Source: Stx2-converting phage Stx2a_F422
Sequence record: AP012531
Direction: 5' to 3' (one strand)
Length of the DNA: 63,253 bases
Made by a program: the position numbers
Shown here: positions 39,001 to 42,000 of the stretch, in pieces
Position numbering within the stretch: position 1 is the first letter of the stretch
Layout: each line of letters starts with the position of its first letter

Positions 39001-42000
39001 ACAAAGAGATAAGTATTGATGCAGTGGTAAGCCGGATACCGGAGGCAGTGTATGTTCTGACGCAGGACGATGATACGCCAGTTCCACTGGAAGAGGCTTA
39101 TGTTAACCCACTGGTGGAGTGGATGTTGTTTCGCGCTTTCAGTAAGGATGCTGCCGGTGGCGCAGAATCGGGGCTGGCTGCGCAGCATTATCAGAGTTTT
39201 GTTGAGCAACTTGGGATCAAACAGGGGGCAGACAGTGCATTGTATGCCCGTAAAAAAGTGTTTAACGGAGGTGGAGTGTGAGTGTTGTTGTTTCGGGGAC
39301 GCTGAAATCTCCTGATGGTGAGGCGATATCAGGAGCAAATATTACCCTGACGGCGCTGACAGTTTCACCGGATGCGCTCAGCGGCACCAGTGCGTCGGCA
39401 GTGACCCGTGAAGGTGGATATTACGGAATGACGATGGATCCGGGGGAGTATGCGGTTTCGGTGACGGTGAAAGGGAAGACTGCTGTCTACGGACGTGTGC
39501 GTATTGAGGGGACCGAAAGTACGGTGACGCTCAATATGCTGTTACGCCGCAGTCTTGTTGAGGTTAGCATACCCGGAGAACTGCTGACAGATTTCCGGCA
39601 GATACAGAATAATGTGGCTGATGACCTTGCCACTATTCGTCGCCTGAATGAAGACACGGCGACAAAAAACACTCAGGCCACACAGTCAAAAGAAAGTGCA
39701 GCAGCCAGTGCGAAGAGTGCATCTGACAGTGCAAAGACGGCAACCAGCAGGGCGGCTGAAGCCGGACAAAAAGCGACTGATGCCACTGAGGCTGCGACCC
39801 GTGCAGTCACAGCAGCGGGGAATGCAGAGGAAAGCTCGACCCGTGCCGGAGAGTCTGAAAAAGCCGCCGGAGCTGATGCAGAAAAAGCCAGACAGCATGC
39901 TGAAAAGGCCAGGCTGGCGCAGGAGAGCGCCGGAGAGATCCTTAAGCGGGCAGAGGCTGCCACTGTCAGTGCTGAAGAGGCCAGACGTATGGCTGAGAAT
40001 GCACGGGGGCCCCGGGGGCCTCAGGGAGAAACTGGTCCGAAGGGGGATGTCGGTCCTAAAGGCGAAACAGGTCCAGTGGGCCCTCAAGGGCCCGCAGGGC
40101 CGAAAGGTGAGCGTGGTGACGTTGGTGCTCAGGGGGCTGTAGGGCCTGCTGGTCCGCGTGGTGAGAAGGGCGAACAGGGGGAGCGAGGACCGCAGGGAAT
40201 ACCAGGCCTGAAGGGGGATACCGGAGAGCGGGGGCCTAAAGGGGACCAGGGGGATATGGGGCCAAAAGGCGAGAAAGGTGATCCGGGAGGTCCTGCAGGC
40301 CCGCAAGGTCCTAAAGGCGAACGAGGAGAAGCCGGACCACAGGGACCGATGGGAGCACGAGGTGAGCGTGGGGAGACTGGCCCCCGAGGTGAACCTGGTC
40401 CTGCAGGTCCGAGAGGCGAACGAGGAGAGACCGGACCTCAGGGACCTCGTGGAGAGCCAGGTCCGGCAGGCAGCGCTGCAAATGTGGCTGATGCAACGAC
40501 GGCACAGAAGGGAATTGTGCAGTTAAGCAGCGCAACGGACAGTGATGATGAAACGAAGGCTGCCACCCCGAAAGCGGTGAAAGCGGCAATGGATGTGGCA
40601 AATGAAGCGAAAACAAAGGCAGAAGAGGCTGCAGCAGGAGGTGGTGTTCCCGGTCCGAAAGGAGATAAAGGGGACACGGGGCCAGCAGGTCCGGCTGGGC
40701 CGAAGGGTGATAAGGGAGAGCGCGGTGACACCGGCCCTGTCGGGGCAACCGGCGAACGGGGACCGGCAGGTGATGCTGGTCCGGCAGGCCCGCAGGGGCC
40801 GAAAGGTGACAGGGGAGAGCGGGGAGAGACCGGTCTGACGGGAAATGCAGGTCCACAGGGTCCAAAGGGAGATACCGGTGCGGCAGGCCCGGCAGGCCCA
40901 CAGGGACCGAAAGGAGAAACAGGTGCGGCAGGCCCGGTGGGGGCGACCGGACCTCAGGGGCCGAAGGGCGACCCGGGGGAGACGCAAATACGGTTCCGTC
41001 TGGGGCCGGGAAACATTATTGAGACAAACAGCCATGGCTGGTTCCCGGATACAGATGGCGCACTCATCACCGGACTGACCTTTCTTGACCCCAAAGATGC
41101 CACACGGGTTCAGGGTTTTTTTCAGCATTTGCAGGTCAGGTTTGGTGACGGGCCGTGGCAGGATGTCAAGGGGCTGGATGAAGTGGGCAGTGATACAGGC
41201 AGAACAGGAGAATGACATGAATATTTTGAGAAAGCTTATGCAGAGTCTGTGCGGTTGCGGAAAGCATGATGACTGTGAAAACGGGCAGTCGCTTACAGCA
41301 CAACTGCGACTGGGACCGGCAGACATTCTGGAGTCAGATGAGAATGGCATTATTCCGGAGCAGGACAGGGTAATCACACAGGTGGTGATACTGGATGCAG
41401 ATAAAAAGCAGATACAGTGTGTGGTAAGACCGCTGCAAATCCTGCGTGCTGACGGGACGTGGGAAAATATTGGCGGGATGAAATAGCCGACAGCTTCACA
41501 AAAACCGGAGCCCGGCTCCGGTTTTTGTTGTCATGTATAGGGGGGGGTTATTAGAGAGTGAAGTAATAAACATGTTAATACGATGGAGTGAAGGATGCCG
41601 TGTAATTCTGGTTCAAGAGTTTTTTATGCCGGAAAATCGCAGGATTATTCTGGATAGTAAAGAATCCTGGTTAATAATCTGTGATAGTCAGTTGGGCCAT
41701 TTAATGCGCAGTATGTATCAGGGACGCCGTTTTATTCAGCTGAATCTGGAAAAATTGAAAGGGGTACATGATGTCGCCTTGCCAGTGAAATGGGAATTCA
41801 CACGAAGACAGTGAATAGCTTTCTGTATACGGGAATGGCGAAAAATGGACTGTATGGTGTGAGTGTGAAACATCTTGCGTGTGCGGAGTGATGCTTCTCG
41901 TTGCTACAGCGGCAATGATAATGCAGTGAAAAAAGGGGAGCAATATGCTCCCCCAAACCGAAAGAAAATTGCAATAATCAATGAAGTTATTTAGTCATCA

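Follow-up and report, generated by a model that had tools for sequence, protein, structure and literature searches.

The Stx2-converting phage Stx2a_F422 (sequence record AP012531) was analysed over a stretch of 63,253 nucleotides (nt), referred to here as the window, which represents a Stx2 phage of the 933W/Sp5 type. Positions 41487-42108 constitute a variable cargo slot, with the tail-fibre genes on one side of it and L0124/ECs1232, an essential tail gene, on the other. The slot is a hypervariable cargo site of the Sepvirinae (933W-like) phages, and it holds two unrelated things. We consider it likely that these are a dead cargo cassette and, separate from it, a live gene for a small RNA (sRNA) that is transcribed from the minus strand and binds Hfq. 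The latter is a candidate for an Hfq-associated prophage sRNA without a name or function in Rfam or in the published EcOnc list. A preliminary description of the same DNA had noted an AT-rich island with an open reading frame (ORF) of 93 residues and a hairpin, and had suggested an inserted moron or a small antisense transcript. The suggestion of an antisense transcript has gained support: the hairpin is a minus-strand terminator, and RNA recovered by crosslinking maps immediately upstream of it.

The hairpin is composed of GGGGAGC (41935-41941), a loop of AATAT, and GCTCCCC (41947-41953), preceded by a run of six A residues (41929-41934). As the preliminary description had pointed out, it reads on the minus strand as a stem-loop followed by T6, and a terminator scan agrees (9 pairs, 6 of them G-C). 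The resulting intrinsic terminator, at 41928-41954 on the minus strand (GGGGGAGC-AUAUU-GCUCCCC and then U6), contains 8 to 9 pairs, including 6 G-C pairs, around a loop of 5 nt, or of 3 nt when the ninth pair forms. There is no U-run on the plus strand (CCAAACCGAAAG), and thus, the hairpin is not the terminator of the 93-residue ORF; the two are separate features and not one unit. A strict rule (8 perfect pairs, at least 6 of them G-C, and at least 5 T in the next 6 bases) was applied to both strands of the 63 kb. It yields 5 sites in the whole window and none in 30 first-order Markov randomisations, and the minus-strand terminator is far beyond chance. Three of the 5 sites fall in the island: this hairpin and both strands of a second terminator.

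The second terminator, which is absent from the preliminary description, occupies 41497-41527, directly 3' of the tail-fibre C-terminal gene. It is bidirectional (A5-CCGGAGC-CCG-GCTCCGG-T5; stem AAAAACCGGAGC-CCG-GCTCCGGTTTTT), with T5 after the stem on each strand. It closes the tail-fibre module on the plus strand and would also halt minus-strand read-through. The standard terminator scan missed it, probably because A/T pairs lengthen the stem into the T-run.

A stem-loop forms on either strand, and the GGGGAGC hairpin lies directly 3' of the stop codon of ORF-60, a small membrane-peptide gene of the cargo, or of its relic. Such a position would suit an element that acts on the plus strand, either as a 3' stabilising stem-loop of the cargo mRNA or as a processing site of the late transcript. 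Nevertheless, this role is highly improbable, given that the plus strand has no U-run, that the asymmetry between the A-run and the T-run is seen in every relative, and that the experimental reads lie on the minus strand.

These reads come from two published data sets. In the first, the Sakai region int_1209 (ECs1231...ECs1232) ranks 27th among the top 100 Hfq-recovered intergenic regions by Hfq-CRAC (crosslinking and analysis of cDNA), a method whose resolution is the intergenic region rather than the single nucleotide. The reads from this literature source fall in one strand column only: 81206/0, 6030/0, 70478/0, 146246/0, and 3140/0 in the 5 samples (Tree et al. 2014, PMC4104026, Table S1B). 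In the same table the cyaR and ryhB regions rank 28 and 32, and the strand of the AsxR region is given as '-' (PMC4104026). The regions of ryhB, sroC, oxyS, and AsxR fill the same column as int_1209, while those of spf, ssrA, cyaR, and micA fill the opposite one. In K-12, we take spf, ssrA, cyaR, and micA to lie on the plus strand and ryhB, sroC, and oxyS to lie on the minus strand. Given this column pattern, and given that Sp5 has the same orientation in Sakai as in the window, the int_1209 reads belong to the minus strand.

The second data set, obtained by RNase E-CLASH (crosslinking, ligation, and sequencing of hybrids), contains two chimeras assigned to a feature called 'ECs1231-1 5UTR', with the descending coordinates 1287527-1287493 and 1287526-1287503; the partner is MgrR in one and rRNA in the other (Waters et al. 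2017, PMC5286369). The two sequences, AAATGCCTTGCATGACATTCTGATGATGACTAAAT and AATGCCTTGCATGACATTCTGATG, each have a single match in the window, confined to the minus strand (42023-41989 and 42022-41999). At this locus the NC_002695.1 coordinate, as set by the CLASH read, equals the window position plus 1,245,504.

The candidate sRNA gene extends from 41929 to 42041 on the minus strand, with RNA detected over 41989-42023. The 3' end is most plausibly at the U-run near 41929, and the RNA reaches at least to 42023, so that it is at least 95 nt long. With a 5' end placed at 42023-42041, its length would be about 95-113 nt. A putative -10 element, TAAAAT (42046-42051, minus strand), with a C at -13 and no recognisable -35, lies in a block common to two alleles of the gene discussed below and might direct the synthesis of an RNA of about 110 nt. 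Another promoter, TTGCAT-N17-TAAATA (42016-41988), which would give an RNA of about 60 nt, was rejected as the sole promoter; the CLASH fragments begin upstream of it (42023 and 42022), and it is not conserved in the other allele. No Rfam family matches the RNA site, and the small-gene tables of Hücker 2017 have no entry for the locus. ECs1231, evidently a minus-strand ORF call that ran across the RNA, has been dropped from the current RefSeq.

The region of the island is 100% identical in 933W, Sp5/VT2-Sakai, and many other Stx-converting phages, and more distant copies are informative about its parts. An estimate from identity bands puts the RNA locus in roughly 350 of the 5,426 complete E. 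coli genomes. Among 91 loci encoding relatives of L0124, the close relatives are of three types: a 933W type; an Eib/cor type; and a group of about 17 loci in which the upstream region is unrelated and the hairpin absent. The Eib/cor type has the same leader block and the same stem as the 933W type, together with a T-run of 5-7, whereas the body of the RNA is only 66-70% identical. The hairpin is thus retained in phages with entirely different cargo, and across the relatives that carry it, the stem is invariant, the loop varies (A or G), and the T-run is 5-7 long. A scan of IMG/VR for the hairpin motif gave 36 matches that represent this locus and 47 that are unrelated generic terminators. A special constraint on the leader (about 42030-42108) was considered and dropped, because the same near-identity runs 200-1000 nt into L0124, which points to a recombination block.

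Citrobacter prophages, whose L0124 homologue is 58-62% identical, have unrelated sequence in this position, yet in them, too, a terminator, either minus-strand or bidirectional, immediately precedes the gene. In a Citrobacter braakii prophage (locus L015, 2214-2431), crossed terminators are found upstream of the homologue, one on the minus strand (2390-2365) and one on the plus strand (2405-2423). A small membrane-peptide gene (MKTVILMLTLIPALMMFVF...) is located further along the minus strand of this prophage, a layout analogous to that of the window with no sequence similarity to it.

The cargo slot itself is polymorphic. Some part of 41487-42106 is matched by 453 of the 5,426 complete E. coli genomes, and the matches belong to three classes. 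The first (933W type) consists of full-length matches of at least 99% identity. In the second, only 41487-41772 is matched, at about 93%, in lambdoid prophages in which effector genes (nleG-like, nleA) come next. The third, which is found in other Stx and Eib phages with short tails, is limited to 41930-42106 and about 84% identical. The slot of third-class phages contains either a hypothetical gene and cor (the O104:H4 phage, phi315, and POCJ13) or an eib/YadA-like gene followed by ORF-156 and ORF-60 (P-EibD, PhiR5_2, and UCPROB-001). The hairpin, accordingly, belongs to the shared right-hand flank and not to the cargo. The idea of an inserted moron can therefore be kept in part: the site is a cargo slot, occupied by eib, cor, or other genes in relatives, while the ORF is a chimeric relic derived by deletion and not an intact insert. 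Unlike a moron, which is an intact cargo gene with a promoter and terminator of its own and is missing in close relatives, the gene here is a relic. The sole promoter-like site nearby, a σ70-like TGGATA-16-AATAAT (41651-41678, plus strand), lies within the relic itself and points towards L0124; it is the only such site in a scan of 1.8 kb.

The ORF, present at 41533-41814 on the plus strand with an ATG start and 93 residues, as had been described, is known as L0123 in 933W, ECs1230 (ECs_1230) in Sakai, and ORF69 in Sp5. Its start differs by annotation: 93 residues, 80 residues from 41572 (Sp5 ORF69), or 62 residues from 41626 in the Prokaryotic Genome Annotation Pipeline (PGAP). In PHROGs, it matches phrog_2014, an 80-residue profile of essentially the same relic, and positions 20-84 of phrog_6585, the 156-residue family of ORF-156. 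Searches by tblastn with P-EibD ORF-156D and the family consensus place residues 21-78 at 41590-41763, in the frame of the ORF, and residues 119-156 at 41772-41885, in a different frame and with 87% identity to ORF-156D; about 40 codons (79-118) are absent. The out-of-frame 3' fragment (41772-41891, plus strand) corresponds to the last helices of a helix-turn-helix (HTH) of the LuxR type and ends at a TGA at 41889-41891. About 112-118 nt (codons ~79-118) are missing at 41763-41772.

Comparison with an intact copy in a lambdoid prophage (locus L004, E. coli AMSHJX01; 1720-2178, residues 1-153 of the consensus) accounts for the left end. In that copy the start codon and the first 23 codons sit in a 165-nt segment that is absent from the window. 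The BLAST segments that flank this gap overlap in the window by 9 bases, AAGGATGCC (41591-41599), and the loss is consistent with a deletion between short direct repeats. It follows from the deletion that the N-terminal 19 residues of the 93-residue ORF are former upstream leader; at its 3' end, 16 codons represent read-through in the wrong frame. On its left side the relic most resembles the lambdoid allele (94%), and on its right side the P-Eib allele (89%, versus 73% for the lambdoid allele), and thus, the internal deletion coincides with a recombination joint at 41772. With residues 1-20 and about 79-118 deleted, the window copy has no full-length frame of about 157 residues with an in-frame HTH. 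L0123/ECs1230 therefore reads as a pseudogene, homologous to the regulator family but broken, and no intact moron is evident. Since the first strand and helix and the whole in-frame HTH are gone, the relic cannot serve as a regulator of this type.

The intact family comprises 44 clusters with 50-97% identity and a length of about 157 residues, all from E. coli where the source is named. Intact genes occur in P-Eib phages as well as in a lambdoid prophage; the full-length open copy in L004 (1720-2190) sits between the tail-fibre C-terminal gene and the nleG-like/nleA effectors, and PGAP reports only pseudogene fragments there. Sequence searches of Pfam, NCBIfam, and the PDB with single proteins gave nothing significant, and no Pfam or NCBIfam model covers the family; what proved informative was the predicted fold, together with hints from profiles. 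An AlphaFold2 model built from a 20-sequence alignment (predicted local distance difference test, pLDDT, 86; predicted template modelling score, pTM, 0.81) has as its best PDB matches response regulators of the NarL/FixJ type without exception: StyR, LiaR, RcsB, FixJ, EvgA, DesR, and VraR. The match probability is 0.94-1.0 for most of these, with E-values of 7e-4 to 5e-3 and template modelling (TM) scores of only 0.3-0.5, as would be expected of two domains that pack differently. Sub-threshold sequence matches to GerE, Sigma70_r4, and LuxR-family structures agree with the predicted fold. The family is thus predicted to be a regulator with an atypical receiver-like domain and a LuxR-type HTH. 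The idea that it might represent the Psr prophage regulators was dropped, since PsrA and PsrB are, according to a review, AraC/XylS proteins in OI-50 and OI-57.

The second member of the cassette, ORF-60 (phrog_9340), encodes a peptide of 43-60 residues with a basic N-terminus and a predicted C-terminal hydrophobic membrane helix. In the window only its last 14 codons remain (GVMLLVATAAMIMQ and the stop; 41885-41929, plus strand), about 149 nt having been deleted. Three deletions in all thus removed the start of the regulator, put its DNA-binding end out of frame, and cut ORF-60 to 14 codons. In cor-type Stx phages (L005, 1390-1500; L010, 1419-1565), the ORF-60 homologue is split over two frames by a deletion of about 15 nt, and annotators call instead a 49-residue ORF that reads through the terminator hairpin.

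The arrangement in P-Eib-type phages, where the ORF-60 stop lies 5 nt before the hairpin, raises the question of whether ORF-60 has, or once had, the minus-strand RNA as its antisense partner, in a convergent, 3'-overlapping pair resembling a type I toxin-antitoxin system of which only the RNA survives here. In those phages the ORF-60 mRNA must traverse the sRNA gene, because there is no plus-strand terminator. However, type I systems consist of an intact hydrophobic toxin ORF and an overlapping antisense RNA, and the window has 14 codons of the former. Two lineages have a broken ORF-60, through truncation here and through a frameshift in the cor type, while the RNA gene is intact, an argument for the RNA being retained in its own right. 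In addition, the putative toxin ORF-60 matches no known toxin family, and it appears to be co-transcribed with the regulator, whose stop overlaps its start. A toxin-antitoxin origin is accordingly very unlikely.

Genetic work with Sp5 bears on the relic. A phage deleted for ORF69 gives plaques and lysogens in several-fold higher numbers than wild-type phage, and a regulatory role for ORF69 was suggested (Mondal et al. 2016). The deletion is in frame and spans 41581-41802, so that neither of the terminators nor the RNA gene is affected. The ORF is also open in all 933W-type phages, and it could be supposed that the 93- or 80-residue product is a functional small protein, a truncated receiver-like domain that regulates phage yield. 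This supposition is improbable. The product would be devoid of the first strand, the first helix, and the whole HTH and would have gained 16 out-of-frame residues; annotators disagree on where it starts; and the deletion phenotype is uncomplemented, so that an effect of DNA or RNA is equally possible. Furthermore, the 933W-type copies are at least 99% identical, and for this reason the open frame says nothing about selection.

The same phenotype is among several findings that weigh against a dead cassette beside a live sRNA gene. The effect of the ORF69 deletion is unexplained by this model, and the DNA or the product of the relic is not entirely inert; its source may be the peptide made from the relic, the promoter-like site (41651-41678), or the AT-rich DNA as such. 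As for the RNA, the whole module is missing from the roughly 17 close L0124 relatives noted above, and the phage can thus do without it. Across all 10 sequence variants the stem is unchanged and so gives no covariation support, and the two alleles have no shared fold upstream of the terminator. Both the start and the 3' end of the RNA are positions that we infer. A consensus scan of 1.8 kb found no σ70 promoter on the minus strand, and the candidate -10 element is without a -35 partner. One MgrR chimera, a single read with an 8-bp duplex, and one rRNA chimera are too little to name a target, so that MgrR is a lead only. Finally, the RNA is absent from the list of predicted sRNAs (EcOnc/'orphan') of Tree et al. 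2014, possibly because the spurious ORF call ECs1231 overlapped it.

Some of these findings are also consistent with the idea that the hairpin is a mere transcriptional insulator, which keeps stray minus-strand transcription from in or near L0124 out of the cargo and tail-fibre genes, and that the Hfq-bound RNA is a functionless by-product. Besides the lack of a consensus promoter on the minus strand, this idea draws on the bidirectional terminator 400 nt further left and on the terminators that unrelated Citrobacter prophages likewise have before the L0124 homologue. Yet the int_1209 read counts are in the range of established sRNA regions such as those of cyaR and ryhB; its AU-rich stretch, terminator, and U6 make up the module that Hfq usually binds; and two diverged alleles of the body are found between the same flanks, as described for AsxR/AgvB. 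On balance, we regard a pure insulator as rather unlikely.

The reading that we favour, a decayed cassette beside a live sRNA gene, can be put as a sequence of events. The ancestral slot would have held the regulator of about 157 residues followed by the small, tail-anchored membrane peptide of ORF-60. The three deletions would have destroyed both cargo genes and left the 93-residue ORF open by accident, as a fusion of former leader, regulator codons 24-80, and frameshifted read-through that would not bind DNA. RNA polymerase would start within the conserved block that immediately precedes L0124, at 42023 or a position upstream of it (probably at 42038-42041), and proceed leftwards until halted at the GGGGAGC hairpin and U6, giving a product of about 95-110 nt. 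In the uninduced lysogen, the AU-rich body and the U-tail would then bind Hfq.

By analogy, the most likely action of such an RNA would be Hfq-dependent base-pairing in trans with host RNAs. A secondary possibility is an action in cis, during lytic growth, on the complementary leader of the late L0124 mRNA; the RNA is fully complementary to this leader, but not to the L0124 ribosome-binding site. A bolder proposal, to which we give a rather low probability, is that the locus represents a second class of lysogen-expressed Hfq sRNAs in the tail-fibre slot of Stx and Eib phages, with a fixed upstream block and terminator and exchangeable bodies (933W and Eib/cor types). Members of this class would reprogramme host RNA networks, for instance by sponging MgrR, or tune late tail-gene mRNA, and they may descend from the antisense partner of ORF-60.

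The locus matters for several reasons. Stx2a phages of this type drive the most severe disease caused by enterohaemorrhagic E. coli, and their expression in lysogeny shapes host behaviour. AsxR, AgvB, StxS, and HnrS have each been found to rewire host regulation, and the present locus is among the most Hfq-bound intergenic regions of Sakai. It also offers a definite place to begin in accounting for the higher plaque and lysogen counts, as yet unexplained, after deletion of Sp5 ORF69. For annotation, L0123/ECs1230 is to be read as a regulator pseudogene, and ECs1231 should be taken for an sRNA gene, not for a protein.

The surroundings of the slot are those of a tail module. To the left lie a collagen-like tail-fibre gene (39278-41215) and a stand-alone gene for a tail-fibre C-terminus (41217-41486, plus strand; Sp5 ORF68/ECs1229, 89 residues; Pfam Phage_fiber_C, 5e-36; phrog_576), which is the last intact gene before the island and is non-essential in Sp5 (Mondal et al. 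2016). To the right, L0124/ECs1232/Sp5 ORF70 (42109-43734, plus strand, ATG at 42109) is essential for tail formation (Mondal et al. 2016). The local AT-richness that had been remarked upon is real, though modest: the GC content is 0.428 over 41533-41955 and 0.421 over 41487-42108, whereas the window as a whole has 0.495, the tail-fibre genes on the left have 0.59, and L0124 on the right has 0.52.

Elsewhere in the window, Rfam models identify a convergent sRNA pair at 24090-24349, consisting of STnc100 (plus strand, 24090-24295) and a copy of AsxR (minus strand, 24297-24349), a pair that fits EcOnc27/EcOnc02, placed 3' of stx2B by Tree et al. 2014. The NC_002695.1 offset at AsxR differs by about 1.3 kb from that at the cargo slot, and so the interval between the two loci is longer by about 1.3 kb in Sakai Sp5 than in the window, a difference that would fit an insertion sequence in size. 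Three tRNA genes are found at 22433-22681. The other Rfam matches are an ALIL frameshift pseudoknot of an IS3-family element (9336-9452), a sok antitoxin RNA of the hok/sok type I system (59923-60097), sRNA-Xcc1 (62719-62807), and the lambda cIII thermoregulator (7899-7957).

Several known systems can be compared with the locus. As a cargo site, it resembles the eib/cor locus of P-Eib (GenBank AF151675) and of the O104:H4 Stx2 phage in its position between tail fibre and L0124 homologue, in its polymorphism by presence, absence, and replacement, and in its lower GC content. Unlike that locus, the window has dead cargo, and the part documented by RNA is on the opposite strand, in the shared right flank of the slot. 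The intact regulator family shares with NarL/FixJ response regulators (RcsB, EvgA, FixJ, and StyR) the predicted two-domain fold and the motif LTxSExxV...LAxEMGIxxKTVxxxLYxGxxKxG. However, it is about 45 residues shorter, has no acidic pair after strand 1, and stays below Pfam and NCBIfam thresholds, and the window copy is a relic with no in-frame HTH.

As for the RNA, HnrS (EcOnc10-12; Poudyal et al. 2026) and StxS (Sy et al. 2020), which are the further prophage sRNAs of enterohaemorrhagic E. coli to have been characterised, are similar in being short, terminator-ended, Hfq-associated RNAs from late regions of prophages in lysogeny. They differ in that HnrS is found in Sp9, Sp10, and Sp12, not in Sp5, StxS arises from PR'-tR', and neither adjoins tail genes. 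A blastn comparison with 4 kb of Sp10, selected so as to cover the coordinates published for EcOnc11 and within which HnrS itself was not located, found nothing. The AsxR/AgvB 'anti-sRNAs' (Tree et al. 2014; AsxR is RF02703) differ from the RNA described here in lying at the PR' slot rather than the tail-fibre slot and in their length (51-60 nt versus about 95-110 nt), and sponge activity is known for AsxR/AgvB alone; at the RNA site, the AsxR covariance model has no match at the gathering threshold or at E<=10, and blastn detects no similarity. Nevertheless, these RNAs have much in common with the present one: they are prophage-encoded, recovered with Hfq in the lysogen, and ended by an intrinsic terminator; they occupy a cargo slot and face the cargo's end; and their related copies keep the 3' end while the body varies.

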